From Vicinamibacteria bacterium (lineage in GTDB: Bacteria > Acidobacteriota > Vicinamibacteria > Vicinamibacterales > CAVVIG01), in the NCBI GenBank assembly GCA_041485905.1, contig JBGPKK010000003.1, positions 2,042-66,041 on the forward strand: a DNA stretch of 64,000 nt, in the 5' to 3' direction. The translations under genes and the position numbers were made by a program. Every line of letters starts with the position of its first letter. The stretch's first letter is position 1. Below the pieces are notes generated by a model. It ran no database searches. It saw nothing but the letters and a program-made list of their open reading frames with translations, and was not told the DNA's origin. Shown piece by piece: positions 27,459 to 54,960 of the stretch.

Positions 27459-27652
27459 AGGACACGGGCGTGTGCGGCCCTCATGTTTCGATAAGGCGTC
27501 CCTCGTGGCACGCCCGCACACATCAACTCGGCGCCGACCTCGGGGGACAGCTTGGAAAGCGCGCAGAGTATACTGCACCGTGGCTCCGGGCGGTCGGTCA
27601 CCCGTGCTCAGCCGGGGCCCAAGAAATCTGCGACGCTCGGCGGCTCTGGCTT

Positions 27653-37332: not shown

Positions 37333-39063
37333 GTGAGGACTCAGTTCGATACCGTGGTCGAGGCCCTTGCGGCGGCGAAGGCCGATTCACGTAACGGCTT
37401 CACGTTTCAGAATCTGCACGGCGATGAAACGAAGTACACGTTCGCCGAGCTAGAAGCGGAAACGGCCCGCCGCGCCGCAGCCATGCAGCAGCTTGGGCTG
37501 CACAAGGGTGACCGGCTCGGGTTGGTCATCGCCGAACCCGAGGATTTCGTGCTCGCGTTCCTTGCGGCGCTGCGGACGGGCGTGGTGCCGGTGCCGCTGT
37601 ATCCCCCGCACTATCTCGGCGGCCTGGAAAACTACTGCAAGCAGACCGGCGCGATCCTCCGGTCCTCGGGAGCCCGGGTCTTGGTCGCGTCTCCGCAAGT
37701 GATCGGTATTGTGCGGGCGCTTCCGGCGTGGGTCGAGGGGCTGAAGACTGTTGTGTCAACGAGGGAGTTGACGGGAAGCTCGCGCGAGACGCACTACCCC
37801 GACATCTTACCGGACGACCTCGCGTTTCTGCAGTACACGTCAGGTTCCACAATGGCCCCGCGCGGTGTGATGGTGACGCATCGCTCGCTGGTCAGCAATA
37901 TCCGGGCGTTCATGGGCACCGGCCTGAAGATGGATCCTGACCGCGATAGCGGTGTCTGCTGGCTGCCGCTCTATCACGACATGGGCCTGGTCGGATTCGT
38001 GCTCGGTCCGCTGTTCTGGGGCGTTTCGGTGGTGTTCATACCGACGTTGCGGTTCATCAAGAACGCGTCGGCCTGGCTGGACGCGGTGGATCTCCACCGC
38101 GCAACGGTGACGTTCGCGCCGAATTTCGCCTTTTCACTGGCGGCGCGTCGTGTGCGGGCGGCCGAGCTCGGTCGCTGGGATCTTTCCTGCCTGAAGGCGA
38201 TAGGATGTGGCGCCGAACCCATCCATCCGCCCACTGTGCGGGAGTTTGTGAGGGTCTTCAGCGAGTCCTGCCGGCTTAACCCGGCTGCGGTGGTGCCGGC
38301 GTACGGGTTGGCTGAGTGCACCTTGGCCGTCGCCATGAAGACGCTCGGGCAGCCATTGCGCACGCGGCTCGTCGATGCTGAGGCGTTCCAACAGGACGGA
38401 ATCGCCCGCCCGGTGGGTGATGGTGACGCGGTCAGTGCCATCGAACACGTCTCGTGCGGCCGGATCCTATCCGGAGCGGAAGTCGCGATCCTCGACGTCA
38501 ATGGAGAACGAGCGCCCGACGATGTTGAGGGCGAGGTGTGCGTCCGCGGTCCGTCCGTTGCGGCCGGCTACTTCGGCGAGCCCGAAGCCTGGGCCCGAGT
38601 GTGGCGGGATGGGTGGCTCTCGACGGGCGACCTGGGCTATCTGTCAACGGGGGAGCTGTTTATCACCGGGCGCTCCAAGGATCTCATCATCCTCAATGGC
38701 CGGAATCACCATCCGCAAACGATCGAGTGGACGGTGGCGGAAGTCGATGGCGTTCGCGAGGGTAGCGTCGTGGCCTTCTCGCGGCCTGGAGCATCCGGCG
38801 AAGAGTTGGTCGTCATCGTTGAAGCCCGGGCCAAGGATTTCAACCGGCTCGTCGCCGATGTCGAAGACGCCGTGCACAACGCCGTGTTCACCAAGCCCGC
38901 CGATGTCGTCTGGTTGCGTCCCGGCAGCCTGCCCAAGACGTCTTCGGGCAAGCTCAAGCGGCATGAGATCAAGCAGCAGTACTTGCGAACGCGTTTCGAA
39001 GCGGAGCGCCTGCGCCCGGAGCAGCACTCAGCAGACCAGACCACGGTCGACGCGTCGACATAA
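37333..39063 (+). CDS. fatty acyl-AMP ligase (FAAL-type adenylating enzyme)
   Basis: GDRLGLVIAEPEDFVLAFLAALRTGVVPVPLYPP, LAFLQYTSGSTMAPRGVMVTHRSL, GYLSTGELFITGRSKDLII, SSGKLKR. No carrier domain is attached. Confidence 0.88.
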   Translation: MRTQFDTVVEALAAAKADSRNGFTFQNLHGDETKYTFAELEAETARRAAAMQQLGLHKGDRLGLVIAEPEDFVLAFLAALRTGVVPVPLYPPHYLGGLENYCKQTGAILRSSGARVLVASPQVIGIVRALPAWVEGLKTVVSTRELTGSSRETHYPDILPDDLAFLQYTSGSTMAPRGVMVTHRSLVSNIRAFMGTGLKMDPDRDSGVCWLPLYHDMGLVGFVLGPLFWGVSVVFIPTLRFIKNASAWLDAVDLHRATVTFAPNFAFSLAARRVRAAELGRWDLSCLKAIGCGAEPIHPPTVREFVRVFSESCRLNPAAVVPAYGLAECTLAVAMKTLGQPLRTRLVDAEAFQQDGIARPVGDGDAVSAIEHVSCGRILSGAEVAILDVNGERAPDDVEGEVCVRGPSVAAGYFGEPEAWARVWRDGWLSTGDLGYLSTGELFITGRSKDLIILNGRNHHPQTIEWTVAEVDGVREGSVVAFSRPGASGEELVVIVEARAKDFNRLVADVEDAVHNAVFTKPADVVWLRPGSLPKTSSGKLKRHEIKQQYLRTRFEAERLRPEQHSADQTTVDAST

Positions 39064-39100: not shown

Positions 39101-41233
39101 TCACGGGCTCGACACCGCGCCGACCCAGACCGGCGTCGCGCTGAGCGTCGCTGTGCCCGTGGGGGCGTCCACGTTCGCCCCGTCGGTCAGATCATTCAGG
39201 CTCGCCCCGGGATGGGCGTTTGCGACCGTTTGTGCGGTTCCCGGCCGTCCATGACCGAATCCGTGCGGCAGGCTGACGACACCGGGCATGATGGCGTCGC
39301 TCAGTTCAAGGGGTGCCGTCACCGCGCCGACCGCCGATCGGATTTCCACGCGCTGCCCGTTCGGTAACCCTCGTGCTGCGGCATCGGCAGGGTGCATCAG
39401 GAGCGTACAGCGATCAGGCCCGGTCATGAGCCGCGGCGCGTTGTGCATCCACGAATTGTTGTTCCGGATCTGCCGTCGCCCGATGAGCGCGAGCGATCCG
39501 GGCGCAGGCCTGCGCGAAAGTCGAGCCGCCAGTCGCTCCAGGTCGGCCAGCAGGATCTCCGGCGCAAGATGAATCTGCTTGTCGCGCGTATACAATCGTC
39601 CCGGCAAGCAGGGAGTGAGCGGTCCCAGGTCGATCGTGTGCGCCTCCTTCCGAAGGCGATTGAGTGAGAGCCGGTGGGGTCCGATTCGCAGAAGCCCGTC
39701 GAGCAGACGCCGCGGACCGAGACGCTGCAATCCCTTCAGGTACAGTCCCGCTATCGAACCCTTCATGCCGCCTCGTCGGGCCTCCAGCCGTTGGGCCAGT
39801 CCGAAGTAGATGTCCCAATCTGTTTTGCTCGTGGGCGGAGGAGTCAACACCGCAGGCGCGTACTTCGCGGTGTTCCGCACCCCGAACGCGCGGAAGGCGA
39901 TGTCGTAATGATCTCGCTCGAGCGCGAATACGGGCGGCAGGATCAACGCGGCATGGCGCGTGGTCTCGTTCAGATAGAAGTCGATGGAGACCATGTACTC
40001 CAGTGACGCGAGGGCGCGGTCCAGTCTCCCGGCATCGGGGGTCGACAGCACGGGATTGCCCGCCGACGTGACGAGCCCGCGGATGCCCCCATGACCCGGC
40101 GTGTCGATTTCCTCGGCGAGCGCGGCCACCGGCAGTTCCCCACCGAACTCCGGCAGCCCGCGGACGCGGCTGTGCCACGTCTTGTGCGAGCCTTTTTGAC
40201 CCAGGAGCGCGCCGATCCGGACGATATCCACGGCGGGTAAGGAAAACATGGCGCCGCCGGAGCGGTCCAGGTTGCCGGTCAGGATGTTGAGTGCCAGAGC
40301 CAGCCAACAGGTGAGCGCGCCGAATTCCTGAGTGCAGGCCCCGATCCGGGGATAACACACGGCCGAGGGCGCAGCGGCAAATTCCCGCGTGAGCTTCCGA
40401 ATCTCATCCGCGGCGATGCCGATGCTGCCGGCGACGCGTTCCGGCGTATAGGGCGCCATCGCGCGCGTGACCTCGTCGATGCCGCGAGTGAAGGATTCCA
40501 GACGCCCGGGCGTGACAAGCCCTTCCGCTGCCAGGGTCTGAAGCATGGCGGCCAGCAGCAGCGCGTCTGTGCCCGGAACAATGGGGTAGTGCGTATCCGC
40601 CAATTCTGCCGTTCGGGTCCGCCGGGGATCGATGACCACGAGACGGCCCCCACGGGCCCGGAGTTCGCGGAACCGACGGGGAATGCCGGGCGCCGCCATC
40701 AAGCTCCCGTTGGACTCCGCGGGATTGGCCCCGATGACCAGCAAAAAATCTGTGCGGTCGAGATCGGGAACGGGCAGCAGCAATTGATGGCCGAACAGGT
40801 GATAGGAAGCAAAGAGATGCGGCAGGTGATCCATCGAGGCTGTGGAGAAAAGGGCCCTCGTGCCCAAGCTCGCCTTGAACCCGAGCTCAGCAAGCTGCGC
40901 GGTGTAGGAGTGGAGATTGGGATTGCCGGTGTAAAAAGCGACGCTGTCTTTGCCGTGCTTCGTCTGGATTTCATGCAGGCGCCCGGCCGCTTCGGCGAGC
41001 GCTGCTTCCCAGCTGACGGTCACCCATCGGCCGTTGTGTCGCTTCAAGGGCTCGCGAATGCGCTCCGGATCCTGGTACACCTCAGTCAGGGCCATCGCCT
41101 TCGCGCACAGGAACCCGCGGCTCAGCGAGTCGTCAGGATCGCCCCGGATCTGTGATATTGCGCCGCGCTCGACCTCGAGCGTGAGGCCACACATCGCTTC
41201 GCAGAAAGGACAGGTGGTGACGTGGATGCCCAT
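39101..41233 (-). CDS. molybdopterin (bis-MGD) oxidoreductase family protein with N-terminal 4Fe-4S motif
   Basis: Start at MGIHVTTCPFCEAMCGL...GFLCAKA (Cys-cluster motif), then MopB domains and a C-terminal molybdopterin dinucleotide-binding beta-barrel (RCTLLMHPADAAARGLPNGQRVEI). The upstream 143 codons of the ORF overlap the preceding gene and are not counted. Confidence 0.85.
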   Translation of the reverse strand: MGIHVTTCPFCEAMCGLTLEVERGAISQIRGDPDDSLSRGFLCAKAMALTEVYQDPERIREPLKRHNGRWVTVSWEAALAEAAGRLHEIQTKHGKDSVAFYTGNPNLHSYTAQLAELGFKASLGTRALFSTASMDHLPHLFASYHLFGHQLLLPVPDLDRTDFLLVIGANPAESNGSLMAAPGIPRRFRELRARGGRLVVIDPRRTRTAELADTHYPIVPGTDALLLAAMLQTLAAEGLVTPGRLESFTRGIDEVTRAMAPYTPERVAGSIGIAADEIRKLTREFAAAPSAVCYPRIGACTQEFGALTCWLALALNILTGNLDRSGGAMFSLPAVDIVRIGALLGQKGSHKTWHSRVRGLPEFGGELPVAALAEEIDTPGHGGIRGLVTSAGNPVLSTPDAGRLDRALASLEYMVSIDFYLNETTRHAALILPPVFALERDHYDIAFRAFGVRNTAKYAPAVLTPPPTSKTDWDIYFGLAQRLEARRGGMKGSIAGLYLKGLQRLGPRRLLDGLLRIGPHRLSLNRLRKEAHTIDLGPLTPCLPGRLYTRDKQIHLAPEILLADLERLAARLSRRPAPGSLALIGRRQIRNNNSWMHNAPRLMTGPDRCTLLMHPADAAARGLPNGQRVEIRSAVGAVTAPLELSDAIMPGVVSLPHGFGHGRPGTAQTVANAHPGASLNDLTDGANVDAPTGTATLSATPVWVGAVSSP

Positions 41234-41256: not shown

Positions 41257-44163
41257 TCACCCGACCACGGGATCGCCCGGCGGCGATGGCCACAGGCATT
41301 TTTCTTCGATGGAAAAGCCATGGGCCGCCGCGAGCTCCCGAATGCGGCGTACTCGGAACGGCGAGAGTTTCCCGTACGAACTCGGGCACTCCGAACCCGC
41401 GAAACCCAGCAGGATGGTTTCCGCGAGGCAGCCGTACAGCTCCGAACTGGTCATGCGCATGGCAGGAACGTTGAGCGTCTGTCCCAGAGGCGCCCACACC
41501 CGGCCGCCACGAATAACGACCGCATCCGGCCGTTCGACCGCGACGCGCGGGTGAACATCCTGTGGGACCGCCACGTCGCAGACGACGAGCGGACCGCGGC
41601 CGAGATGTTCCGGAAAAACGATCGGGCGGGGTGAGCTCGTGCACGACGCAATCAGGGTGCACTCGCGCAGCACGTCGAGCGAGGTCGCGATGCGCAACGG
41701 GGCCTTGTCCCCGAGCTCTGCTGACAAACCCTCATACAGGGCTACGCCGAGAGCGCCCGGTTCACGCAGATCGTCGATCGCCAGGCGCTTGACCGTCTTG
41801 GTGTCGGCGATACTTCCGGCGATTCCTGCAAGCCGGCCGCGCCTCATGCGTCTGAACGCTCGCGCGTAGATGGCATGCGCCACCGGCAGAAGAAACCGTT
41901 CGGCCCTGGCTTGGCCAACCAGAACGATGTGGCCGGCCTCATCGGCCGCGATTTCAGCGAACACGGCGCCGACATTTCCTCCGGCGCCGATGACCGCCAT
42001 CCTGCCGGCTTGCAGGTCGATCCCGAGGCGGTTGGCGGCCAACCGACAGCCTTCGATGGCGGCTGCCACGGTCAGACTGTTGCCGCTCGTCACCGTCAGG
42101 TCGAGCTCGACGACTTCACGGCAGTTGTCGGTGACGATCGACGTGTGTCCGCCCAGCCCCACGACGGTACACCCATGGTCGCGAGCCAGCTGGACGCCGT
42201 GTTTGACGAGATCGAGCGCCCAGTCGTCTCCGGCGCGCATGCTCAGCACGGCCTGCTGGGCCGTAAACGGGATACCGACGAACGTGACGTGCACGTGCGC
42301 GTTTCGCAATGATCGCATCTCCGCGTGGTCGAGAACGAACGGCTGAAGCGATCCTCGCGTGCGATCCAGAAAGCGCGCGCAGTCCGAATCGGTGAAGGCG
42401 GACAACCCCGATTCCCAGACTCGGAGATCGCACGGTTCCGAGAAATGGACAAGGAAGCCGACACGAGCGGCGTCGGTGGGTACCGGGCTCGGCCGCGGCT
42501 TTGCGGGTGGTGTCGGGAGATCGGCCTCCGACTCTCGCGGGGCCGGGCGATCGCTCAAATAGGCGACCAGCTGGCCGACTCTATCCCGCTGAAGCAGCGA
42601 GCAGAGGCGTTCCAATGCGACGCCGAGGCGTTCAATCGCCTCGTCGCTCACGAATGCGGAGGGTTCCACGCGCAGGACGGTGCTCTTCGACAACGTGGGA
42701 GCGACACGAATGCGATGCTCCCGCAAGAGATAGCCGCAAGCCACGTAACCGAGCAGGTTCTGCTCCGACAGCACCTGCAGCAAAGGTGAGGAAGAACCGG
42801 TCTGCGGCATGAGCTCCACGCCGATCATCAATCCACGGCCGCGCACCTCACGGACTTGATTGGGGAAACGCTCCCGAACTCGCTCGAGTCGTTCGAGCAG
42901 TTGCTCTCCCTTCTCTCGACACCGGGCGATCAGGCGGCCGTCCTGCCTGTCCAGGATGTCCAGCGTGCGTAGCGCAATCATGCTCGAGAAGTCGTCGTCG
43001 GCGAATGTGGACGTGTGCAGGTACGCGAATTCGGGCACATGTCGCTCGCGATCGACCAAGAGAGCCGAGACTTTCGCAAGGCCGCCGCCCAGCGCTTTTG
43101 AGAACAGGTAGTAATCGCCGGCAATTCCGAGGCGCTTCGAGGCGAGGAAATCACCGGCCCGCCCCAGGCCGCTCTGAATCTCGTCGATCACGAGCGGACA
43201 GCCGGCGCTGTCCGCTGCCTGCCGGAGCGTGTGGGCGAACTCGGGGCTGAGTTCGTGGATTCCGCCTTCGCCCTGAATGGGCTCGACGAAGATGGCGGCG
43301 ACATTGGTGAAGATCTGTTCCTGCAGCTCCGGCGTACCGTCCTTCGAGACGGCCAGCGTGTAATACGGCTCGCGCCTGCGCTGCAGTTCCGCGCGTACCG
43401 CCTGCGCGTCTCCAAACGGTACGAACACGGTCGCGTCGCCCAGGCGACGCCATGGGCTCCGGAATTCGAGTCGATGCGTCAGCTTCAGGGCGCCGGTCGA
43501 TTTCCCATGGAAGCTGCCAGTCACCGCGAAGAAGGTGGGTGGGCGGCCGAGGAGTCGCTCGATGTTTCGACTGAGCGCTGCGAGGAGCTCGTCGAGCGAG
43601 TCGATGCGCTCGGCCAGACGCTGCGACGCGTCCTCAAAGAGATCGGAACCAGTACCGACCCGACCCGAGCGAATCCGCAAGCGAAGGCGCTTGCCAGTGT
43701 CGACGAAACGCGCCAGCAGGGAATCATTGCGCCTGGACGCTTCCAGCTCAGCGTGTTTGATCGCGGCCTCGACCGCTTCGGCTCCGGTGCTGCACAACGT
43801 CACGATGTAGGAGCGGCCGGTGGTGCGCTCCACGAACGAGGAGAGTCGCTCGGCGAGCAGCCCGGCGTGGCCGCGAATGCTGGCCTGTGCATGAAAGGGC
43901 CGCTGCTCGGCGAGCACCTGCCCCGCCAATTCGACCAGCTCGGGATGATTGTGGCCGAGAAGGGAGGCGCCAAAACCACCGACGAAATCGACGACCTCCA
44001 CCTCACCGCCCGGTCCCTCGTAATAGAGACGATCGCCGACGGCACGATGGTAGTGCACATCGAGACCGAAGGCTTCCAGCAGGTGCGCGAGGTGCGGCTT
44101 CAGCGATCCGGCGTACGCACGCCTGAATGGATCGTCATGGCGCTGAACGTCCTGCTCGCTCAT
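41257..44163 (-). CDS. bifunctional fusion: class III PLP aminotransferase (N-terminal) + cyanobacterial-type acyl-ACP reductase (AAR)-like domain (C-terminal)
   Basis: N-terminal half: GGFGASLLGHNHP, VEPIQGEGG, LVIDEIQSGLGRAGDF, LFSKALGGG (PLP-Lys). After a Pro-rich linker (aa about 540-566), the C-terminal half reads VGFLVHFSE, GLGGHTSIV, VTSGNSLTVAAAIEGCRLAANRLGIDLQAGRMAVIGAGGNVGAV and ELYGCLAETILLGF. These parallel FGLIGHLTS, LGGFTSII, TTGNTHTA...VAVVGATGDIGSAV and FACFAEAMLLEF (catalytic Cys) of Synechococcus AAR as I recall it. Confidence 0.85.
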   Translation of the reverse strand: MSEQDVQRHDDPFRRAYAGSLKPHLAHLLEAFGLDVHYHRAVGDRLYYEGPGGEVEVVDFVGGFGASLLGHNHPELVELAGQVLAEQRPFHAQASIRGHAGLLAERLSSFVERTTGRSYIVTLCSTGAEAVEAAIKHAELEASRRNDSLLARFVDTGKRLRLRIRSGRVGTGSDLFEDASQRLAERIDSLDELLAALSRNIERLLGRPPTFFAVTGSFHGKSTGALKLTHRLEFRSPWRRLGDATVFVPFGDAQAVRAELQRRREPYYTLAVSKDGTPELQEQIFTNVAAIFVEPIQGEGGIHELSPEFAHTLRQAADSAGCPLVIDEIQSGLGRAGDFLASKRLGIAGDYYLFSKALGGGLAKVSALLVDRERHVPEFAYLHTSTFADDDFSSMIALRTLDILDRQDGRLIARCREKGEQLLERLERVRERFPNQVREVRGRGLMIGVELMPQTGSSSPLLQVLSEQNLLGYVACGYLLREHRIRVAPTLSKSTVLRVEPSAFVSDEAIERLGVALERLCSLLQRDRVGQLVAYLSDRPAPRESEADLPTPPAKPRPSPVPTDAARVGFLVHFSEPCDLRVWESGLSAFTDSDCARFLDRTRGSLQPFVLDHAEMRSLRNAHVHVTFVGIPFTAQQAVLSMRAGDDWALDLVKHGVQLARDHGCTVVGLGGHTSIVTDNCREVVELDLTVTSGNSLTVAAAIEGCRLAANRLGIDLQAGRMAVIGAGGNVGAVFAEIAADEAGHIVLVGQARAERFLLPVAHAIYARAFRRMRRGRLAGIAGSIADTKTVKRLAIDDLREPGALGVALYEGLSAELGDKAPLRIATSLDVLRECTLIASCTSSPRPIVFPEHLGRGPLVVCDVAVPQDVHPRVAVERPDAVVIRGGRVWAPLGQTLNVPAMRMTSSELYGCLAETILLGFAGSECPSSYGKLSPFRVRRIRELAAAHGFSIEEKCLWPSPPGDPVVG

Positions 44164-44453
44164 CAGTCTCGCGGGGCCCTCTGAGGCGCGTCCTTCTCAT
44201 CACGGGTCTGTCGCCGAAGCCGCTCGACGTACGCGGCCAATTCTCCAACCGTACGCACGCCATCCAGCTCCTCGAGGTTGAATCGGACGGCGAACTGCTC
44301 CTCGATTGTCAGCATCAGGTCCATGATGCGAACCGAATCGATGCCGTAGCCGCGCAGCCGTGCTTGGGGGACGACGAGCTCGGGCAAAACGGCGCAAGAC
44401 TCCGCTATCAGGTGTCGAAGCCGCTCGATCGTTTCAATGCCGTTCTCGCTCAT
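44163..44453 (-). CDS. acyl carrier protein
   Basis: 96 aa from MSENGIETIER. Phosphopantetheine site motif YGIDSVRIMDLM. ATGA overlap with the upstream SDR and TGATG overlap with the downstream fusion gene. Confidence 0.8.
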   Translation of the reverse strand: MSENGIETIERLRHLIAESCAVLPELVVPQARLRGYGIDSVRIMDLMLTIEEQFAVRFNLEELDGVRTVGELAAYVERLRRQTRDEKDAPQRAPRD

Positions 44454-45331
44454 CGGTTCGTACTCGAAGCTCGATCCGATCGCTGGGTATCCTGCGGGGA
44501 GCCGTCCGACGCGGTCGTCGCGCCGTAGAACGACAGGAGAAGGCGCTCGCAGATTGACCATGGTAGCGTGCGTTTGAGCAACGCCGAAACCCGCTGGCTC
44601 GGATGACCCACGGTGTAGCGAAGGCGAGTCCGCCGGGCCCGCACAATCCTGGCGACGAGGGTGGCAACCTCCGTGGGTGGAACGCCTTTGGATTCCTCCT
44701 TCTGGACCACGGCAAACGCACGGCTGAACGTGTTGCTGTACGGCGAGCCGTCGCGTGACGCCAGCGCAAACACGCGGTTGCTGGTGATCGCCGTCCGAAC
44801 GTCACCCGGCTCGATCAAGACGACTCGGATTCCGAACGGCCGCGTCTCGAGGCGCAGGCTCTCGCTGAGCCCTTCGAGCGCAAACTTGCTTGCGCAATAC
44901 AGCCCCTGAAAAGGCAGCCCGAAGAGGCCCGCAAGCGAGCTGATATTGACGATGAGACCCGAGCGCTGCCGGCGCATCGACGGCAGGACCGCCCGGCACA
45001 CCCGCAGGACGCCGAACAGATTCGCTTCGAACTGATGCCGAGCCTCTTCGACTGAGGTGTCTTCGACGGAGCCACCGAGGCCGTAGCCCGCGCTGTTGAT
45101 CACACAATCGATGCGCCCATGCTGTCGCAACAGACCTGCCACCCCGCGACCGACTGAGTTGTCGTCGGTCACGTCCATCACGAGAGGTTCGAAAGAGTGT
45201 GGGCGGAAACTCGCCTGTCGGCTGGTCCCGTACACGCGGAATCCCAAAACGGCAAGTTGTTCGGCGCACGCCTGCCCTATCCCGGATGAAGCGCCCGTGA
45301 CCAGCGCGATGGAGGGTTCAGCCGCCATCAT
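44450..45331 (-). CDS. short-chain dehydrogenase/reductase (classical SDR)
   Basis: ALVTGASSGIGQA (TGxxxGxG), NSAG, SSLAG...YCASKFALEG (YxxxK). Confidence 0.88.
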   Translation of the reverse strand: MMAAEPSIALVTGASSGIGQACAEQLAVLGFRVYGTSRQASFRPHSFEPLVMDVTDDNSVGRGVAGLLRQHGRIDCVINSAGYGLGGSVEDTSVEEARHQFEANLFGVLRVCRAVLPSMRRQRSGLIVNISSLAGLFGLPFQGLYCASKFALEGLSESLRLETRPFGIRVVLIEPGDVRTAITSNRVFALASRDGSPYSNTFSRAFAVVQKEESKGVPPTEVATLVARIVRARRTRLRYTVGHPSQRVSALLKRTLPWSICERLLLSFYGATTASDGSPQDTQRSDRASSTNR

Positions 45332-46592
45332 GCACCAGATCGGAGCCCATCTCGCGAAGGACCTCGATTGCGCGGTCCGCGATGAAATGGATGTCCTGTT
45401 CAGTGAGATCGGCGTATACCGAAAACCGCGCAAGGGTGATGCCCTTGGGGATGGCTGGAAACACGAACACGGAGGTGAGTATCCGATGCTCCCTCATGGC
45501 TTCGTAGAAGCGGCACGCCTGCTCATCCCGAAAGAAGATGGAGATGATCTGGCTCGCGCTGCCGGCAGTTCCGATGCCCTGCTGATGCAAACGAGACCTG
45601 AGCAGTTCAGCCATCGCGAGGCAATGCCGCGCTCGCTCCGGCTCGCGGATGACGATCTCCAGCGCCTTCATGTGCCCCGCCGCGAGCACGGCGGAAGTGG
45701 CTGAGCTGAAGAGGACCGGTCGCATACAGGTGCAGAGACTGCGAATCATCTCTTTGCTGCTTGCGACGAACCCTCCGTGTCCCCCCAAGGCCTTGCTCAG
45801 GCTGACGGTTCGAAAATGCACTCGGTCGGCCAGGCCAAGCTCGACGGCAAGTCCTCCTCCCTTCTCGCCGAACATCCCAAAGGAATGTGCCTCGTCGAGG
45901 ATCAGCGTGCAGTCGTATTGCTCGCAGATTTCCACGTAGCGGAGGAGGTCGGGGAGCACGCCGTCGGTGCTGTACAGCGCGTCGATGCACACCAGGCCTG
46001 GTCCATGGATACCGACGCGTTTTTCGAGATGGTCCGGGTCGTTGTGCTTGACGACCACCCGGCGACCTCGCGAGAGGCGAATCCCGTCACTCATGGACGC
46101 GTGGGCGTCCACGTCGATGTAGATCGGCAGGTCCGGCGGAGCGACAGCTTCGATCAGGCCGACATTGGCGGTCCAGCCGGCCGTCGTCAGCACGACGTCG
46201 CCGGCCTGCGTCGACTCACGAAGAAGCGCAACGAAACGCTGGTGCTCCTCGGAGGCGCCGCCAAAGACCGACGAAGAAAACGACTCGATGCGGGGGCGGC
46301 TGTTCGCCTCGCGACGCGCGCGCACGACGTCGGGGTGATTGGCCAGGCGAAGGTAGTCGTTCTGATGCAGCGACAGGAACGCCGTAATGTCAGAGGGCTG
46401 GTCAAAAGGAAACGGCCGGAGACTGTCGATGAACTGCCGGTGTTCCTCGAGGTGGCCCGAAAGCCACGCCGGATACCGCGGGGACCCGGTCTGAGCCCCC
46501 GGGACCTCATCCGGCTGACAGGTGACGTTCAACGGGCCTTCGGAGGGCGGTGACGAGGGCGGTCGCGAGCTCATGGCCTCGGATCTGGACAA
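45318..46592 (-). CDS. alpha-oxoamine synthase family PLP enzyme (BioF/Spt/CqsA-like acyl-thioester : amino acid C-acyltransferase)
   Basis: HQNDYLRLANHP, TTAGWTANVG, DAHASM, ILDEAHSFG, TVSLSKALG (PLP-Lys). HGPGLVCIDALYSTDG resembles the CqsA/LqsA branch as I remember it, but this is not decisive. Confidence 0.88.
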   Translation of the reverse strand: MSRSEAMSSRPPSSPPSEGPLNVTCQPDEVPGAQTGSPRYPAWLSGHLEEHRQFIDSLRPFPFDQPSDITAFLSLHQNDYLRLANHPDVVRARREANSRPRIESFSSSVFGGASEEHQRFVALLRESTQAGDVVLTTAGWTANVGLIEAVAPPDLPIYIDVDAHASMSDGIRLSRGRRVVVKHNDPDHLEKRVGIHGPGLVCIDALYSTDGVLPDLLRYVEICEQYDCTLILDEAHSFGMFGEKGGGLAVELGLADRVHFRTVSLSKALGGHGGFVASSKEMIRSLCTCMRPVLFSSATSAVLAAGHMKALEIVIREPERARHCLAMAELLRSRLHQQGIGTAGSASQIISIFFRDEQACRFYEAMREHRILTSVFVFPAIPKGITLARFSVYADLTEQDIHFIADRAIEVLREMGSDLVHDGG

Positions 46593-46649
46593 CGGCGGGA
46601 GTCGCCGATCGCCGAGCTGATAATACAGGGCGCCCCCCCTTTTGCGAAA

Positions 46650-46913
46650 TCAGCGCACCGGGCTGCGGTTCGATGTGGTCTGAATGAGGGTGATCACGTG
46701 GCCGACCGTTCTTGCGGTGGCCAGCGCATCTTCTGCGAACGTGCGGCCGAGCCTGTCTTCGATATTTCCGAGCATTTCCATGATGCGGATGGAGTCGACC
46801 CCGAGGTCTTTGATTTCCGTGTCGGGATTGAGCCGCGCGAAGCGAGCGGCCTTGTCCGGAGCCACTTCACAGAGCGCATCCCGAATCAGATTCAGGGCGT
46901 CGTCGTCGTCCAT
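46650..46913 (-). CDS. acyl carrier protein
   Basis: 87 aa. DLGVDSIRIMEMLGNIE with the DS phosphopantetheinylation motif. Confidence 0.85.
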   Translation of the reverse strand: MDDDDALNLIRDALCEVAPDKAARFARLNPDTEIKDLGVDSIRIMEMLGNIEDRLGRTFAEDALATARTVGHVITLIQTTSNRSPVR

Positions 46914-46932: not shown

Positions 46933-49074
46933 TCAGGCAGCGGCGGCGATGCGTTGTGCTGCGTACCGCGCCAGCGCCATGACGGTCAGGGCAATGTTCA
47001 CCGTGATCGGAGACGGAATGACGCTGGCGTCGCAGATCCACAGGTTCTGGACGCCAAACACCTTCATATTGTGATCGACGACGCCGTCGTGCGGCTTCAG
47101 GGCCATCGCGTTTCCGCCCTGCATGTGCGCCGACATCACGCTGATGAAGTCGCTCTGGTCGATGCCGGCAAAGTAGTCGTCGATATCCTCCACGCGCCTC
47201 ACGACCCCGGCATTGAACCTGCTGATGAAGACTTCCTCGGCACCCATCTTGAACATCGCGTGTGCGGTGATCTTCATGCCTTTTGCGAGGCGTCGCCAGT
47301 CTTCATCAATCAGTTTGAAGTCAATCACGAAGCCGCTGTCACCAAGGACACCGCGCCTGATCTCTCCATAAGCCAGCGACGCGAAGACCGGTGTGGCGGT
47401 GATCATGTTGGAGATCCGGCGCAGCCTGCGTTGGAACTCCGGTCCCCAGGCCGGCAGACCGAGGGCGACGAGCCCGGGAGGCGCAAACGCGGTCTCGATG
47501 ATCATCCGCTCCTCGGGCACTTCCACGGCATAGGCGACCTGCTGGGCAAGGAAGGCATCCTGCCGTTCCGGGAACACCCCGATCACCGGCGAACCCACAT
47601 TGACACTGAACCGCCTGCCGACCGTGCGGACACCGGGCACGGCGCCCAGAAATCCGCTGCGCCAGAGCAACTTGGTGGACGCATACGCTCCCGCCGCGAG
47701 AATAAAGCGGTCGGCCTCGATCCGGACCGAACCGCTGCCCTCACCGACATGAATCGCCCGGACCTCGAGGTCCGAGTTCGCGGGTCCCCCAGGCGCGAAC
47801 TCGATCTTGGTCACCCTCGCGTCAGGAACCAGCAGACCGCCATTCCGCACAAATTCGGGGATAAATGTGACCAGCACCGACTGTTTCGCATCGTACTGGC
47901 AGCCCAGGTTGCAACGGCCGCATCCGATGCAATTCAGGGAGTTGGTTGACACTGTGATCGGCTCGAGCACCCGAGCGTACGCGGTGGCGGGGCCCACTCC
48001 CCCCGCGACCAGCTTCGCAAAGCCGTCCCGTACCGTGCGTGCCCCCTTCGAGATGACCCGTTCCTCCATGGGAGTCACGTGCAGGAGCTCGGTGAGCACG
48101 TCGAACTGCCTGTTGAAATCGGCGTAGTCGAGTCTGATGCCAAGATTCTCCCAGCGGCGTTTCAGATCGTCCCACCAGAAACCCGCCGGCCTCAACGCGA
48201 CCGCGTTGTTGACGACGGTGGAGCCGCCCACGCATCGGCCCTGCTGAAACATGAACTGCTGGTCCTTCGACAACGTGATGCCCGCATTCATGTACAGCTG
48301 CGAGAGGGATTCCAACGCCGAGGTCTTGAACTCGTCGTTCGTCACCAGCGGGCCGACTTCGAGCAGGATCACTCGAGCCTTGGGGTTCTCTTCCTGGATC
48401 GTCCGCGCCGCCACCGCGCCTCCGGCTCCTGAGCCGATGACGCAGTAGGTAAGCGACCCGGAGGGCCTGACGGCAACCTCTTGAGGCGACTTCCGGCGCT
48501 CGTGCAGCAGCTTCGACGATTCGGTGCGAGGCGGGTTGCTTAATTCCGGTCCGGAGGGCGGATTCCACGCGCGCTGCACGACAGGCACATATTCCATCGC
48601 GCGCCACAGCCGATCGTCGTCGAGGTAAGCGCTCACCAGCGTGAACTTGAACACGTCAAGAGTGGCGATGGTCTTGACCGTATCGTCTTCTTGTTCGGGA
48701 GCATCTCGGATGAGCATCTGATACATCTGCTCGATCCATGCCGCACGTTTCTCCCGACTCGACGCGAGAAAATGTCCGTGCCCGAGGAAGCTCTTGAATC
48801 CGTACCAGACTTTCACCGCGGCGTGCGCCACACTCGACTTGGGCCACCTCGGAGGCTCATAAAGGGGGAGCAGGGCCAGGGTGCCGATAAACTGCAGGAA
48901 GACCGGGGTGTTCACGCCAGCCAGAAAGCCATCGAGCTTGTTGACGATGGCGCTGCCATCGACTTTAAAGGGGCCGTCTCCATAGCCGAGTATCGATTCG
49001 GCGAAAGCGGCGACGAACGGCTTGTTCGCTTTCCAATAGGCCCATGCCAACAGCCTCGTCAGTTTCTTCAGCAC
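46933..49074 (-). CDS. GMC-family FAD oxidoreductase with about 210-aa N-terminal extension (long-chain alcohol oxidase-like size)
   Basis: FAD motif YCVIGSGAGGAVAARTI about 215 aa into the protein. GGSTVVNNAV. C-terminal MGGNAM...VFGVQNLWICDASVIPS. 713 aa against about 530-560 for ordinary bacterial GMC enzymes. Confidence 0.85.
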   Translation of the reverse strand: MLKKLTRLLAWAYWKANKPFVAAFAESILGYGDGPFKVDGSAIVNKLDGFLAGVNTPVFLQFIGTLALLPLYEPPRWPKSSVAHAAVKVWYGFKSFLGHGHFLASSREKRAAWIEQMYQMLIRDAPEQEDDTVKTIATLDVFKFTLVSAYLDDDRLWRAMEYVPVVQRAWNPPSGPELSNPPRTESSKLLHERRKSPQEVAVRPSGSLTYCVIGSGAGGAVAARTIQEENPKARVILLEVGPLVTNDEFKTSALESLSQLYMNAGITLSKDQQFMFQQGRCVGGSTVVNNAVALRPAGFWWDDLKRRWENLGIRLDYADFNRQFDVLTELLHVTPMEERVISKGARTVRDGFAKLVAGGVGPATAYARVLEPITVSTNSLNCIGCGRCNLGCQYDAKQSVLVTFIPEFVRNGGLLVPDARVTKIEFAPGGPANSDLEVRAIHVGEGSGSVRIEADRFILAAGAYASTKLLWRSGFLGAVPGVRTVGRRFSVNVGSPVIGVFPERQDAFLAQQVAYAVEVPEERMIIETAFAPPGLVALGLPAWGPEFQRRLRRISNMITATPVFASLAYGEIRRGVLGDSGFVIDFKLIDEDWRRLAKGMKITAHAMFKMGAEEVFISRFNAGVVRRVEDIDDYFAGIDQSDFISVMSAHMQGGNAMALKPHDGVVDHNMKVFGVQNLWICDASVIPSPITVNIALTVMALARYAAQRIAAAA

Positions 49075-49313: not shown

Positions 49314-50390
49314 TCAGAACGTTCGACGAAACTCTATTCTGATGATGTTGTTGTACCAGTCCGCGGTCGTGAGCGCGTGTCCGTACCCGACGTACACAGA
49401 GCTGCCACCACCGAATGTCGCGCGGCCACCAACTTTCAGGTTGACGATGTTGATGCCGCTTGCGTTGCTCACGGCTGCCGTCTGAAATCCTCCGAGGACG
49501 TGCCAGCCGACCAGCTCAACGATCGGGCCAAACTGGAGACCATCGCCTTGGTACACCTGGAAGCTCGGGCCGACGCCGTAGTACAGAACATCTCCGGCGA
49601 ACTTGTCCGGGCTTGACGTCGGCACTCCCGCCGACCCATTTGTCGGGTGGACATCGCCGATTTCTGATTCGAGCGCGAGGCGATCTGAAAGCGCTTGGTA
49701 GTAGAGCAGCGAGGGTTCGACGCTCCAGTGGTTCGTCCCCAAACCGTTCAAGGCCTTGCCAGATGGCATCCACGCTTGGAACTGCGCCGTGAGGTGGCTG
49801 TCTTCCGACGCCAGCAGGGCCACCTTCACCCCGGCCCGCGCGTCCCCCAATCCGCTCTGATCGGAAAAGCTCCCGCTCCCCGGCGCAAACGCCTGCGGCT
49901 GAAGCCAGCGCAGCGGAACGTCTACGAATCCGGACACGCGGTTGTGCACCGCGTATTCGCCGCGCAGGCGGAGCTCCTGAAAGTTCAAATCGGTCAGGAC
50001 CGCCGGGCCAGGGCCGGCCGCGTTGGGATCGAACGCGGCGTTGGCCTGGGGCAGGCCGCGGTAGCAGCCGCACTTCGCGTAGAAGAACTCCGCGCGATCT
50101 GGAGTGTCAATGTGGAACCCGGAGTCGAATCGAACCCGCACTTGCGACTCGACCGTGCTGTCGTCGACGTACCCGACCATGCTGGGGCGTCGTCGTCCCG
50201 GGTCGGTCGGGGGCGGTGAGGGCGGCCTCCCCTGAGCGAGCGCATTCGACGCCTGCTGGGACGAAGAGGCGGAGCGGAGGGCATCGAGCCAGACGAGGGC
50301 CCCGGTCGCCGGCGCTCCGTCGGCGCTCGTTTCTTGCGCGACTGCGGTCAGGGGCCATAGAAGCACGATCACTGCGACGAGACGTTGCAT
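49314..50390 (-). CDS. outer-membrane beta-barrel protein (MetA-pathway/phenol-degradation-type hydrophobic compound channel-like)
   Basis: Signal peptide MQRLVAVIVLLWPLTAVAQE, alternating beta-strand pattern, C-terminal IRIEFRRTF ending in Phe. GGAGG RBS. Confidence 0.6.
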   Translation of the reverse strand: MQRLVAVIVLLWPLTAVAQETSADGAPATGALVWLDALRSASSSQQASNALAQGRPPSPPPTDPGRRRPSMVGYVDDSTVESQVRVRFDSGFHIDTPDRAEFFYAKCGCYRGLPQANAAFDPNAAGPGPAVLTDLNFQELRLRGEYAVHNRVSGFVDVPLRWLQPQAFAPGSGSFSDQSGLGDARAGVKVALLASEDSHLTAQFQAWMPSGKALNGLGTNHWSVEPSLLYYQALSDRLALESEIGDVHPTNGSAGVPTSSPDKFAGDVLYYGVGPSFQVYQGDGLQFGPIVELVGWHVLGGFQTAAVSNASGINIVNLKVGGRATFGGGSSVYVGYGHALTTADWYNNIIRIEFRRTF

Positions 50391-50423: not shown

Positions 50424-53318
50424 CTACTGGCGTTGGCTGGTTCCCGGACGCGCCTTTTGCCGAACTTTATCGGATAGCGCCGTCACCGCAGCGCGATCGC
50501 GGGGCGATAGTTCCGGGACCAGGTGTGACAGGCTATCAAGGGCGTCCTGCGCCTCGGCCGGCGATCCCGGAAGAACCCGGTTGACAAGCGCCAGGTAAAC
50601 GCCGAGGGCCCGGGACAAGAGCTGGCGAGGACCTTCGGCGTCTCCAGTCTCCCTGCTCAGAGCCGCCAAGTTTACCAAAAGATCCCCGAAACGGAGTTGG
50701 AATTGCTGAAGGCGCGGCACCGTCGGATCGTTTGCGAGCTTCTCGAACAACGCGAGCGACTCCCGGTATTCGTCTTCCGCACCGCGCGACCCCGCTGACT
50801 GCAGGATCCGGCCCAGGAGGCCGTGCGCATCCGCCTGCTCGATGCCCAGCGACGGCGCGGGGCGAGCCAGATCCTCGAGCAGGTCGATCGCCTGCGCGCT
50901 CCGCTGTCGTGCGGCATCGAAGGCTTTCCTGGTGCGGAGCAGTTCCGCGAGGTTGTTGCAGTACTGGGCGAGCTCCATCTTCGACTCTCGGTTCGTCGGG
51001 TCTGCGGCGACAATACGTTCATCGATCTCGATCGCGCGCGTGAAGAGCGGCTCGACCTCAGCGGCGCGACGATCGTCCTGCGCGAGCAGGCTCGCGAGAT
51101 TGTTGTAGGCCCGCGCCAGTTCCTGGAAGGGCAGCGAATCGGTGGTCTTGCCGGCCAGCGAATCCAGAAGCCGAATCGATTCGCGGAAGTCCGACTCGGC
51201 GCGCTGGAAGTCCGCATCGCCTGGAGTGGCGCTGGAAGCGCGAAGGATGCCCCGGTTGTACAGGGTGCGCGCCAGCTCTTCCTGGTATTTCGCGTTCCGT
51301 GGGCTGTCTCGAACCAGCTGTTGCTGCCGAAGCAAGGCGCTGTCGTAGGCCCTTCCCGCGTCGGCCGCACGGCCGCTCATCGGCCTGAGCGTCTCGCCCA
51401 GCCAGTTCTGGACGTCCGCCAGGGCTTCGCGGTACTCGGCCGTGCGAGGAGAGAGGGCGACGAGGCTTTCGAACGCGGCGATCGCCTGCCGGTATTCCTC
51501 CGCCGCGTTGTCGACCTTCGCGAGCATGCGGCTGATGTGGCCCAGCCGGAGGTGGGCGAAAGCCAGGTCCCTGCGAATGTCCTCGCCGCTCGGCTTCTGC
51601 TGCATCAACGCGACGTAGAAGCGTTCCGCCCTGTTCAGCAACTCCCGGCGGAACTCCTCCATCTGGGGCACGTCCGCGCCGATGCGCGCCGGATCGCGAT
51701 CCGAGGCCGCCAACGTCTGGTCGACCGCGTTTCGGGCCAGCTGGAAGTTGATTTCAGCTCGCGAACTCTCTCTGGACGCCACGTAAGCGAGAGAGGCCGT
51801 GGCGATGAGCAGCGTTCCGAGAACGCCGGCCGCCCACTGCGCGCGCCGGAGCTTGGTCTTTCGCTCCTTCTCGACAGCTGCCTCGACGCGCTGGCGCTCT
51901 CGCTCGCTTCGGAGCAGGAAGTCCATCGCGCGATCCAACGACTCGCCGTACCGCTTCGCCCACGCGGGCGTCGGGTGATTCTCGTCTCTCCAGCGCAATG
52001 CGAGTTCGAGCTCGGGATCGCGCCACAGCCCTGCCGTGCCTTCCTCGCACCACCGGGCGGCCTCCGACAGGCGCACGTAGAAGGCCGCGGCCGTTTGTTC
52101 CTCCTCCGCCCACGCCATCAGACGCGACCAGCACCGCATCAAGCTTTCGTGCGACAGATCGATGATCGCTCGCGAGCTGAGCGGCTTGCCTGGGGGGGGC
52201 ATCAGGAAGCTGCGGCCCCGGGCCCGGAAGATCTCGACGACGCGGATGACCTCGGTTTGATCGATGTCGCAGATCGCGGCAAGCTCGGCGATCGACGTGG
52301 GCCGCCTGACACCGCGCTGATCCGAGAAGCTGTCGGTCAGCGCCTTGAAGATCTGCTCGGCGATCCCTTGCTTGGCTTCGGCGGCGGACTCGGCGTACGC
52401 CTCTTCGGCGTGCATCGAGAGGCAGTTGCGCAACGTGCCGACTTCTTCGTAGTCGACGACGTCGATCGGCTCGCCGGGCTGTGCCCGCCGTTCCCAGTGC
52501 TCCCAGGTTCGCATCAACGCGTGCTGCAGGACCGGAAGCTGGTCCTGATCGGCACCAAGATCGTTGAGCATGCGGACCACAAGGCGCGGTGCAATCGTGG
52601 CGCCGCCGACCGCCACCGGTCCGGTCATGGCCGATCGCAGCTCGTCGCGCGTCATGCGGGGCACGAGGTACTGGCCGGCGTTGACCGCTTCGGGGAGCCC
52701 GATGAACTCCGTGCAGTCGCCGATGAAATCGGACCGCATGGTCAAGACGGCGTAAATTGGAATCTCGTTCTGTCTGGTGGCCTCGAGCAGCAGCTTGACG
52801 AAGGCCGCCGCCTCGTCTCTCGAATTTTCGAACTGCCGACTCCGGTGGAAGCGAAACAGCTCCTCGAACTGATCGACGACGACCAGGAGGTTGTCGTCGC
52901 GCGGAATTTGTGCCTGCCGGACGAGGTCGACAAGCCCGAGCGTGCTGCGGCGGAGCGTGGCGTCGAACAGCACCGCGTTCGTGCTGGCCAGGTCATCGTC
53001 GACTGCGAGGACACCGGGGGCGTCGAGCGCGGCGGCCAGATGGGAGATCGGATCCTCGCCTGGTCGAAACATCGCCACGCGCCAGCTGGTGCCCGCCCGG
53101 GCCATGAAGCCGCTGTGCAGGGATGGAATCAGCCCCGAGCGGACGAGAGACGACTTGCCGCTGCCCGAGGTGCCGACGACCGAGACGAACCGCGTCATCC
53201 GCAGGCGCCGAACCAGATCGTCGGTTTCCTTCTCGCGTCCGAAGAAGAGATGGTCTTCGTCCGGCTCGAACGGGCGCAGTCCGGGAAAAGGATTGAAGAG
53301 CGCGCCGGTCGGACTCAC
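50424..53318 (-). CDS. nSTAND1-type STAND NTPase with central TM helix and C-terminal TPR array
   Basis: N-terminus NPFPGLRPFEPDEDHLFFGRE, Walker A VVGTSGSGKSSLV, Walker B LLVVVDQFEELF, then the helical/wHTH region. A hydrophobic helix WAAGVLGTLLIATASLAYVA follows KERKTKLRRAQ. The last about 430 aa are TPR-like repeats. GTG start overlaps the upstream stop (GTGA). Confidence 0.85.
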   Translation of the reverse strand: MSPTGALFNPFPGLRPFEPDEDHLFFGREKETDDLVRRLRMTRFVSVVGTSGSGKSSLVRSGLIPSLHSGFMARAGTSWRVAMFRPGEDPISHLAAALDAPGVLAVDDDLASTNAVLFDATLRRSTLGLVDLVRQAQIPRDDNLLVVVDQFEELFRFHRSRQFENSRDEAAAFVKLLLEATRQNEIPIYAVLTMRSDFIGDCTEFIGLPEAVNAGQYLVPRMTRDELRSAMTGPVAVGGATIAPRLVVRMLNDLGADQDQLPVLQHALMRTWEHWERRAQPGEPIDVVDYEEVGTLRNCLSMHAEEAYAESAAEAKQGIAEQIFKALTDSFSDQRGVRRPTSIAELAAICDIDQTEVIRVVEIFRARGRSFLMPPPGKPLSSRAIIDLSHESLMRCWSRLMAWAEEEQTAAAFYVRLSEAARWCEEGTAGLWRDPELELALRWRDENHPTPAWAKRYGESLDRAMDFLLRSERERQRVEAAVEKERKTKLRRAQWAAGVLGTLLIATASLAYVASRESSRAEINFQLARNAVDQTLAASDRDPARIGADVPQMEEFRRELLNRAERFYVALMQQKPSGEDIRRDLAFAHLRLGHISRMLAKVDNAAEEYRQAIAAFESLVALSPRTAEYREALADVQNWLGETLRPMSGRAADAGRAYDSALLRQQQLVRDSPRNAKYQEELARTLYNRGILRASSATPGDADFQRAESDFRESIRLLDSLAGKTTDSLPFQELARAYNNLASLLAQDDRRAAEVEPLFTRAIEIDERIVAADPTNRESKMELAQYCNNLAELLRTRKAFDAARQRSAQAIDLLEDLARPAPSLGIEQADAHGLLGRILQSAGSRGAEDEYRESLALFEKLANDPTVPRLQQFQLRFGDLLVNLAALSRETGDAEGPRQLLSRALGVYLALVNRVLPGSPAEAQDALDSLSHLVPELSPRDRAAVTALSDKVRQKARPGTSQRQ

Positions 53319-54811: not shown

Positions 54812-54960
54812 GCGCGGTTCCCCTCTGGGGTGCTGATTGGAGCGAGCCTCAAAAACCAAGTTTAGGCTAGGCCAAAAGCAGGGACCTGTCCAGCGCGCGG
54901 CCGTGGGCCGCGGCTCGGGTTGACCGGCGGTCGGCCGACGCGCCAAGATCAGGGCCTCCT

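Follow-up and report, generated by a model that had tools for sequence, protein, structure and literature searches.

Pyridoxal phosphate (PLP)-dependent enzymes install nitrogen by two strategies, the Claisen-type condensation of alpha-oxoamine synthases (AOS) and the reduction of a thioester followed by transamination, which have previously been described apart, the former in quorum signals and sphingolipids and the latter in prodiginines and tambjamines. The Caulobacter-type sphingolipid cluster comprises Spt, a dedicated acyl carrier protein (ACP), an acyl-ACP synthetase, CerR and bCerS, whereas MbtM, MbtL and MbtN, a fatty acyl-AMP ligase (FAAL), an ACP and an acyl-CoA dehydrogenase (ACAD), form the lipid-tail module of mycobactin. 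CqsA and LqsA are AOS enzymes that use an acyl thioester and an amino acid, and in the pair BioF and BioA an AOS and a class-III aminotransferase act in succession, giving two nitrogens on one fatty chain. The second strategy is represented by TamH, which works with TamA and TamT in the tambjamine YP1 pathway of Pseudoalteromonas tunicata, and by PigE of the prodigiosin pathway, both of which fuse a class-III transaminase to a thioester reductase of the acyl-ACP reductase (AAR) type. PtTamH, a protein of 941 aa with the transaminase preceding the AAR domain, turns TamA-bound C12 acyl-ACP, not acyl-CoA, into the amine (PMC9594044), and reduction of the thioester followed by transamination of the resulting aldehyde has been demonstrated for PigE (PMC8341465). 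Here we analyzed a stretch of 64,000 nucleotides (the window) from a Vicinamibacteria bacterium of the Acidobacteriota (GenBank assembly GCA_041485905.1, contig JBGPKK010000003.1, positions 2,042 to 66,041 of the forward strand), in which a minus-strand operon appears to join both strategies on dedicated carriers.

The enzyme types encoded by this operon are known; their combination is new, and it is conserved across phyla. By analogy, the system would work like TamA/TamT/TamH joined to an AOS of the CqsA/Spt type and a reductase, while the individual enzymes score below the family cutoffs for CqsA, Spt, PigE, BioF and Kbl. Our preferred reading, to which we give slightly better than an even chance, is that these genes are the core of a conserved lipid operon uniting two enzyme logics, the predicted product of which would be a long-chain amino-alcohol or amine lipid. 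Literature searches for this gene combination returned no relevant paper.

Enzymes and carriers of the operon

Five consecutive open reading frames, all with strong Pfam domain matches, occupy positions 46913-41257 of the minus strand. The first encodes a carrier protein, ACP1 (46913-46650, 87 aa; PP-binding, E 7e-11), with its attachment serine in LGVDSIR. It is followed by the AOS (46574-45318, 418 aa; Aminotran_1_2, E 9e-34), with the PLP-binding lysine in SLSKALG, a short-chain dehydrogenase/reductase (SDR; 45331-44450, 293 aa; adh_short, E 5e-45) with the motifs TGASSGIG, NISS and YCASK, a second carrier, ACP2 (44453-44163, 96 aa; PP-binding, E 1e-12), with its attachment serine in YGIDSVR, and a fusion of an aminotransferase and an acyl-ACP reductase (AT/AAR; 44163-41257, 968 aa), in which an Aminotran_3 domain (E 2e-55) precedes a C-terminal Rossmann-type domain. 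This order and these positions had been reported in a preliminary description made from the sequence alone; they proved to be real, with all catalytic motifs intact, and the enzyme assignments given there agree with matches in Pfam, NCBIfam and the Protein Data Bank (PDB). The two motifs that it had singled out in the AOS, SLSKALG and HQNDYLRLANHP, were both found in that protein.

The junctions, reread from the sequence, are also as first described: the AOS and SDR genes overlap by 14 nt, SDR and ACP2 share ATGA, and ACP2 and the fusion share TGATG. Gene calls on two contigs with an identical ACP1 (L001 and L002) agree in gene lengths and overlaps, and the junctions overlap too in relatives with a 61–80% identical AOS, which bears out the proposal that the genes form one translationally coupled unit. 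The AOS had been placed at 46592-45318, and its end stands; TTG 46592 does give the longest reading frame, but ATG 46574, yielding the 418 aa called on L001 and L002, is the better placed start. Scans for riboswitches, promoters and terminators found nothing above chance. Given the domain E-values and its conservation, the gene arrangement itself is far beyond chance.

The AOS has the PLP-binding Lys, the stacking His and the Asp that binds the pyridine nitrogen, as its fold would have them. Its SLSKALG, AHAS and LDEAHS align with the corresponding motifs of CqsA and Kbl and are invariant in 20 homologues; the family invariants include K261, H158, D227, H230 and R383, and an N-terminal extension (YPxWL...PFPFDQPSD) is conserved. 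The best curated model in NCBIfam was the CqsA/LqsA type (NF005526), with 290.4 bits, below the equivalog cutoff of 428. BioF reached 224 bits (cutoff 426), Kbl 204 bits (cutoff 460), three Spt models 193/500, 182/640 and 147/670 bits, and ALAS 161 bits. Vibrio cholerae CqsA was also the top PDB match (186 bits), ahead of Kbl at 140 bits and of a range of 125–140 bits spanned by Kbl, BioF, Spt and CapB; identity was 33.5% to V. cholerae CqsA and 29% to Escherichia coli Kbl. In a neighbour-joining tree, the AOS family of the window is the sister of the group containing V. cholerae CqsA, which itself clusters with three other loci (L037, L038 and L043) outside that family. A genome scan retrieved relatives of at least 44% identity in about 29 species representatives from many phyla, the next matches being 38% identical at most. 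Because all curated cutoffs are missed and the tree yields a sister clade, we regard the AOS, on sequence grounds, as a member, in the 'type A' clade, of a discrete CqsA-sister family that is related to CqsA but orthologous neither to it nor to Spt, BioF or Kbl. Of the two affinities proposed earlier, sphingoid-base-like or CqsA-like, the second is thus the closer by hidden Markov model (HMM), PDB match and tree, but orthology applies to neither.

In JGI/IMG, the label 'CAI-1 autoinducer synthase' is given to most of this AOS family. No histidine-kinase domain was found in any gene between 23.8 and 56.9 kb of the window or in the type-A loci, and hence no kinase of the CqsS/LqsS type within 10 kb of the AOS in any type-A locus examined. 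As the CqsA cutoff is missed, the family lies outside the CqsA clade and the loci examined have no such sensor kinase, the label is likely a systematic over-annotation, and mislabels of this kind inflate the apparent quorum-sensing capacity of metagenomes.

The SDR directly follows the AOS in all type-A loci. Its best NCBIfam model was the 3-ketodihydrosphingosine reductase KdsR (NF049977; 287 bits, cutoff 400), nearly matched by the generic SDR subfamily PRK06179 at 261 bits. It is a ketoreductase of the classical kind and is predicted to act on the AOS product by reducing its 3-keto group.

The N-terminal half of the fusion is a class-III aminotransferase, with its PLP-binding Lys in LFSKALGGG, and its C-terminal half is an acyl-ACP reductase-type domain with GAGGNVG and a catalytic Cys in YGCLAE, a motif that aligns with the catalytic-Cys motif FACFAE and with NGCMAE. 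PigE was the best NCBIfam model (314 bits against a cutoff of 850, matched in four stretches), and the score against BioA was 119 bits (cutoff 405). The C-terminal 400 residues match the N-domain of PigE (4ppm, E 3e-16) and the AAR of Synechococcus (6jzu, E 6e-12). All 15 homologues compared keep K356, G726/G729/G732 and C912, and the fusion shares both its domain order (transaminase, then AAR) and its size with PtTamH (968 vs 941 aa). Motifs and models therefore support its assignment as a TamH-like bifunctional transaminase and acyl-ACP reductase. The family is large, with 1957 matches at E < 1e-30, and TamH-like fusions with FAAL and ACP partners are sought as fatty acid-to-amine catalysts. 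A metagenome scan with a back-translated alignment of the fusion gave generic patterns, and nearly all of the 80 loci listed were ordinary class-III aminotransferases. Minimal modules of ACP, FAAL and AT/AAR without an AOS occur in Planctomycetes and other lineages (L175 7728-12892, L176 9756-14798 and L177 6110-14614), some of them with ACAD-like genes. TamH-like fatty acid-to-amine modules thus appear to be widespread outside pigment pathways.

The carriers had been described as dedicated to the AOS chemistry, and two distinct types are indeed conserved. ACP1-type carriers, marked by a 6-residue insertion, are 39–68% identical to each other (orthologues in L088, L008, L178 and L179) and ACP2-type carriers 30–74%, against only about 18–29% between the types, with 25–29% for the ACP1 of the window compared with ACP2-type carriers; the serine of G-x-D-S is kept in all orthologues of both. 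In every type-A locus, the gene immediately upstream of the fusion is an ACP2 orthologue. Since ACP2 groups with the ACPs of the AOS-free FAAL-ACP-AT/AAR modules (30–41% identity, same gap pattern), we assign it to the fatty acid-to-amine module and not, as first proposed, to the AOS; ACP1 is a second carrier, specific to AOS-containing islands. In L178 and L179, ACP1 sits elsewhere, divergent, beside an ABC1 kinase, and in Myxococcaceae no ACP1-type carrier was found within 10 kb, so a nine-gene version of the system, discussed below, would work with one nearby carrier. ACP1-AOS-SDR-ACP2, suggested earlier as a unit, is accordingly not conserved as such. A phosphopantetheinyl transferase (PPTase) of the ACPS family adjoins the core in L094.

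Conservation of the core and the genes that travel with it

Conservation was assessed by tblastn and gene calls on related loci, with genomic context drawn from about ten type-A loci. AOS-SDR-ACP2-AT/AAR with overlapping junctions is present in a metagenome-assembled genome (MAG) of the Thermoanaerobaculia (L008), which is the closest named relative of the operon, and in Citreicoccus/Myxococcaceae (L009, L092), and the set is also present in five metagenomic lineages (L088, L093, L094, L178 and L179). AOS identity across the type-A loci is 61–80%. The conserved core consists of these four genes together with those for a molybdenum (Mo) oxidoreductase, an ACAD-like protein, an SCP2-like protein, a permease and a FAAL. 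In L178 and L179, which are distant metagenomic relatives, the nine form one colinear operon in the order AOS-SDR-ACP-AT/AAR-Mo-ACAD-SCP2-permease-FAAL, and in the window, L088 and L092 the same nine genes are rearranged over two strands. That gene content is retained through rearrangement argues for a functional linkage.

Among the five further genes, the FAAL (37333-39063, plus strand; 576 aa) has an AMP-binding domain (E 3e-66) and a DIP2-like C-domain in Pfam. It scored 483 bits against the fatty acyl-AMP ligase model of NCBIfam (cutoff 600), 273 bits against MbtM and 135 bits against the amino-acid adenylation domain, and it is conserved in L088, L092, L093, L178 and L179; we predict from these matches that it loads the carrier protein or proteins. 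As an AMP-ligase, a carrier, an ACAD-like protein and an AOS occur together, a proline/pyrrole route of the PigI/PigG/PigA kind was considered, and was rejected because the ligase is of the FAAL type and the ACAD-like protein is nearer to SCAD and FadE16 than to PigA.

This ACAD-fold flavoprotein (34144-35394, plus strand; about 416 aa; Acyl-CoA_dh_N/M/1/2 in Pfam), the reading frame of which reaches upstream to 33985, is the most conserved protein of the set, with 65–91% identity across loci. Its best NCBIfam model was the Rv1679/FadE16 family (255 bits, cutoff 600) and its best PDB match SCAD (159 bits), with the position of the catalytic Glu aligned to Gly. The catalytic Glu of YEG is replaced by a conserved MGP (SVMGPSDDT), and the ACAD-fold oxygenases KijD3, DnmZ and DszC match at only about 70–77 bits; judging from these residues, the protein may not be a conventional dehydrogenase. 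The Mo oxidoreductase (39101-41233, minus strand; about 710 aa; Molybdop_Fe4S4, Molybdopterin and Molydop_binding in Pfam) is of the cytoplasmic bis-molybdopterin guanine dinucleotide type, FdhF/Nap-like, with an N-terminal 4Fe-4S motif and no Tat signal, and its top PDB matches are FdhF-type enzymes (156 bits). In the alignment, Asp-His stands at the position of the Mo ligand Cys/Sec-His, and STAS[MVT]DHLPH is conserved in 6 orthologues. A standard formate dehydrogenase was rejected in view of the conserved Asp in place of the Cys/Sec ligand. The gene is present in L088, L092, L093, L178 and L179, the last two showing translational coupling between it and the AT/AAR fusion.

The SCP2-like lipid-binding protein (35447-35824, plus strand; 125 aa), with an SCP2 match just above the Pfam cutoff (E 3e-4), is 65–66% identical to the products of 125-aa genes in L178 and L179 and has counterparts of the same size and position in L088, L092 and L093. 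The permease (35879-37228, plus strand; 449 aa; AA_permease_2, E 2e-20 in Pfam) belongs to the APC family of amino-acid/amine permeases, has weak NCBIfam matches to amino-acid, ethanolamine and GABA permeases, and is kept in every type-A operon that carries the Mo enzyme.

Putative pathway and alternative readings

In the pathway that we propose, the FAAL would load a long-chain acid onto the discrete carriers, as its homology and the pairing of FAAL and ACP in every context of both enzyme families suggest. By the chemistry of its family, the AOS, in which the carboxylate-binding Arg is conserved, would condense the acyl-carrier thioester with an alpha-amino acid to a 2-amino-3-ketone, which the SDR would reduce to a vicinal amino alcohol. 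The fusion, following the precedent of TamH and PigE, would reduce the ACP2-bound acyl thioester through its catalytic Cys to the aldehyde and transaminate this to a primary amine. Models and motifs thus agree with the earlier view that there are two carrier-dependent nitrogen-installing enzymes. From these loading, condensation and reduction steps would follow a long-chain lipid with an amino-alcohol head and/or a terminal amine, its nitrogens being on one chain or on two, which might be tailored by a desaturase, a cytochrome P450, a GMC oxidase, the ACAD-like flavoprotein and the Mo enzyme, and handled by SCP2-like proteins and transporters.

Several points weigh against this reading. The curated equivalog cutoffs are all missed (CqsA 290/428, KdsR 287/400, PigE 314/850), and the AOS tree contains few reference sequences and carries no bootstrap or other support values. 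Myxococcaceae have one nearby ACP, so that 'one carrier per enzyme' is not general. No gene of the set is an obvious candidate for linking an amino alcohol with a fatty amine, and the reading does not explain the roles of a Mo enzyme with an Asp ligand and an ACAD-like protein without the Glu.

Among the known systems, the fusion recalls Tam and PigE, with a conserved nucleotide-binding GxGxxG motif and catalytic Cys; as in the Tam system, its partners comprise an adenylating enzyme, a carrier and a protein of the ACAD fold, and the logic runs from acid through acyl-ACP and aldehyde to amine. It differs in that the carrier is a discrete ACP, unfused to the adenylating enzyme, which is of the FAAL type; no genes for the bipyrrole MBC are annotated, the fusion stands in one coupled unit with an AOS and an SDR, the PigE score falls below its cutoff, and the ACAD-like protein is without the usual catalytic Glu. 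CqsA and LqsA remain the closest characterised AOS enzymes, with the PLP-binding Lys, the His, the Asp and the kinds of substrate in common, whereas the AOS of the window is a sub-cutoff member of a sister clade with an N-terminal extension, has no cognate sensor kinase and is set in a lipid operon fed by FAAL and ACP. With the Caulobacter-type cluster it shares an adenylating enzyme that would load a dedicated ACP feeding the AOS, and a reductase acting on the 3-keto product; it differs from it in having no Spt orthologue, a classical SDR as reductase and no ceramide synthase, and in adding the AT/AAR fusion, the Mo enzyme and a second ACP. As in MbtM/MbtL/MbtN, the same locus encodes a FAAL, a discrete ACP and an enzyme of the ACAD fold, but here no acyltransferase onto a siderophore is found, the ACAD-like protein lacks the canonical Glu, and an AOS and an AAR/AT follow. 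The succession of an AOS and a class-III aminotransferase resembles BioF-BioA, from which it differs in its scores (224/426 and 119/405), in the absence of other bio genes and in the fusion of the aminotransferase to a thioester reductase.

An AOS serving as housekeeping BioF in biotin synthesis or Kbl in threonine catabolism, beside unrelated genes, had been named at the outset among the cases that would overturn the first reading. Its partial scores to both models are significant, but they lie far below the cutoffs, no bioA, bioD, bioB or tdh was found nearby, the tree places the AOS among CqsA relatives, and overlapping junctions and synteny tie it to SDR-ACP-AT/AAR across phyla, so that this explanation is effectively refuted. 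A genuine bacterial sphingolipid pathway would make the AOS an Spt, fed by the ACP and an acyl-ACP synthetase, and the SDR a 3-ketosphinganine reductase, with the ceramide step encoded elsewhere. KdsR as the best model of the SDR, membrane desaturases accompanying the core, and a FAAL, dedicated ACP and AOS that parallel the Spt, ACP and ACP-synthetase set of Caulobacter all fit this pathway. Yet the Spt models score well under half their cutoffs, the AOS groups with CqsA and not with Spt, the KdsR score is barely above those of generic SDR subfamilies, and the tightly coupled AT/AAR fusion would be left unexplained; moreover, no acyltransferase or ceramide-synthase candidate is present among the annotated genes between 23.8 and 50.4 kb of the window, in agreement with the preliminary description, which had recognised no ceramide synthase. 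We consider this pathway improbable.

Two further outputs have somewhat more in their favour, while both are, in our judgement, unlikely. In a pathway to an alpha-hydroxyketone signal like CAI-1 or LAI-1, a diffusible autoinducer, the AOS would make the amino-ketone, the AT would remove the amine, possibly onto an AAR-derived aldehyde, and the SDR would set the hydroxyl; AOS, AT and SDR are indeed the three activities needed to pass from amino-ketone to hydroxyketone. CqsA is the best HMM and PDB match of the AOS, JGI labels family members accordingly, and relatives of the AOS in Fibrobacteria stand beside a response regulator and a nucleotide cyclase. Against such a signal are the sub-cutoff score, the position of V. 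cholerae CqsA outside the family at only 33.5% identity, the absence of a CqsS/LqsS-type kinase within 10 kb in the window and in type-A loci, and the fusion of the AT to an AAR, an arrangement that carries a thioester through to an amine in TamH and PigE; 10–20 lipid-handling genes would also be excessive for a simple signal. A shade less doubtful is an alkaloid- or pigment-type cluster, in which one chain with an AOS-derived ketone/amine and an AAR/AT-derived amine would cyclise to a cyclic imine, as when PigE forms dihydro-MAP or in TR+TA polyketide alkaloids, and the GMC oxidase would aromatise or oxidise the ring. Among NCBIfam models PigE fits the fusion best, PigE and TamH belong to prodiginine and tambjamine pathways, large polyketide synthase (PKS) genes lie next to the core in L093 and L094, the latter with a PPTase, and a large flavin oxidase comparable to PigB is a conserved accessory. 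However, the window and most loci have a FAAL in place of a PKS, and a membrane lipid accords better with the SCP2-like proteins, the ABC1 kinases, the desaturases and the genes for RND/outer-membrane transport. The annotation lists of the window and its relatives contain no MBC pathway component and no condensing enzyme of the PigC/TamQ type, for which no dedicated search was made.

The recurrence of this gene set across phyla with poorly known lipids probably marks an unrecognised class of lipid or metabolite. More speculatively, and with a chance well short of even, Acidobacteriota, Myxococcota and other uncultured lineages could have in common an unknown class of nitrogen-rich long-chain lipid made by the operon; a diamino-alcohol would be one example, or an alpha,omega-bifunctional 'sphingoid-like' base whose synthesis needs no ceramide synthase. 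The Mo enzyme and the ACAD-like flavoprotein would then do new chemistry (for example, N- or C-oxidation) on the amine lipid. Direct testing is possible, since the minimal nine-gene version occurs in a cultured organism, Citreicoccus inhibens M34.

Other contexts of the AOS family and neighbouring genes

Most genome representatives of the AOS family have a different, equally conserved cluster of the order FAAL-ACP-desaturase-(aldehyde dehydrogenase)-AOS-sulfotransferase-DUF1254/1214-SDR(-APS kinase). It is exemplified by a Pseudomonas sp. (L090 5518-15326) and recurs in L012, L013, L015, L017-L019, L023-L025 and L028-L030, its taxa being Lysobacterales, Methylococcales, Lentimicrobiaceae, Pseudomonas, Nevskia, Kiritimatiellae and Sorangium. 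The gene content suggests a sulfated amino-alcohol lipid, and we found no published description of such a cluster. In a Fibrobacteria MAG (L021 8269-11855), the AOS homologue is flanked by a response regulator and an adenylate/guanylate cyclase protein, a signalling-type context unlike those with AT/AAR or a sulfotransferase. These differing contexts point to a FAAL/ACP-fed AOS that has been recruited into several pathways. A large multidomain PKS (KS-AT-KR-DH...) adjoins the core in two type-A loci (L094 15247-21302 and L093 1-1255), so that some lineages may use a polyketide as acyl substrate in place of a fatty acid loaded by the FAAL.

Accessory genes that recur in type-A loci encode ACP1, a GMC oxidoreductase (about 710 aa), a membrane desaturase, a pair of ABC1 kinases and a P450. 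In the window, a GMC flavin oxidoreductase (46933-49074, minus strand; 713 aa; GMC_oxred_N and GMC_oxred_C in Pfam, with an N-terminal extension of about 200 aa) has orthologues of 44–77% identity in L088, L178, L179 and L003. A putative outer-membrane channel for hydrophobic compounds (49314-50390, minus strand; MetA/Phenol_MetA_deg-like, PF13557, E 4e-7) had no orthologue in the other type-A loci, and its tie to the operon is weak. The membrane fatty-acid desaturase (27470-28720, plus strand; FA_desaturase, E 5e-35 in Pfam) is 50% identical to the one encoded directly upstream of the AOS in L178 and L179; L094 has a called desaturase gene too, though sequence comparison with the window yielded no match. 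Two tandem ABC1/UbiB-type atypical kinases (23798-27578, minus strand; ABC1, E 1e-51 each in Pfam) have counterpart pairs in L094, L178 and L179. Between these genes and the ACAD-like gene lies a tailoring block, identified by Pfam matches, of an NAD-epimerase/3beta-HSD-like protein with a C-terminal SCP2-like Alkyl_sulf_C domain (28946-30316, plus strand), a luciferase-like monooxygenase (30313-31383, plus strand), an alpha/beta hydrolase (31467-32645, minus strand) and a cytochrome P450 (32384-34135, minus strand). Genes of all four types stand around the AOS core in L094, where the luciferase-like protein is 74% and the 3beta-HSD-like protein 47% identical to that of the window, and a P450 is also found at L179.

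Directly upstream of the lipid genes, positions 50424-56877 hold a three-gene block of an nSTAND1 NTPase with TPR repeats (964 aa), a protein with TIR_2 and DUF4062 domains (543 aa) and, divergently oriented, a protein combining a TPR-S sensor with a nucleotide cyclase (638 aa). It resembles an island for conflict or signalling, and PADLOC assigned no known system to its STAND/TIR genes. A B12-binding radical-SAM protein with DUF4070 (11419-13095, plus strand) and a tRNA gene (575-658, minus strand), the sole Rfam match in the window, show no link to the AOS operon. Beside the pair of ABC1 kinase genes, at 16852-22972 on the minus strand, lies a complete resistance-nodulation-division (RND) tripartite efflux system composed of an AcrB-like protein (1201 aa), a membrane-fusion protein and an outer-membrane factor, and L088 likewise has RND/MacB efflux genes flanking its cluster.

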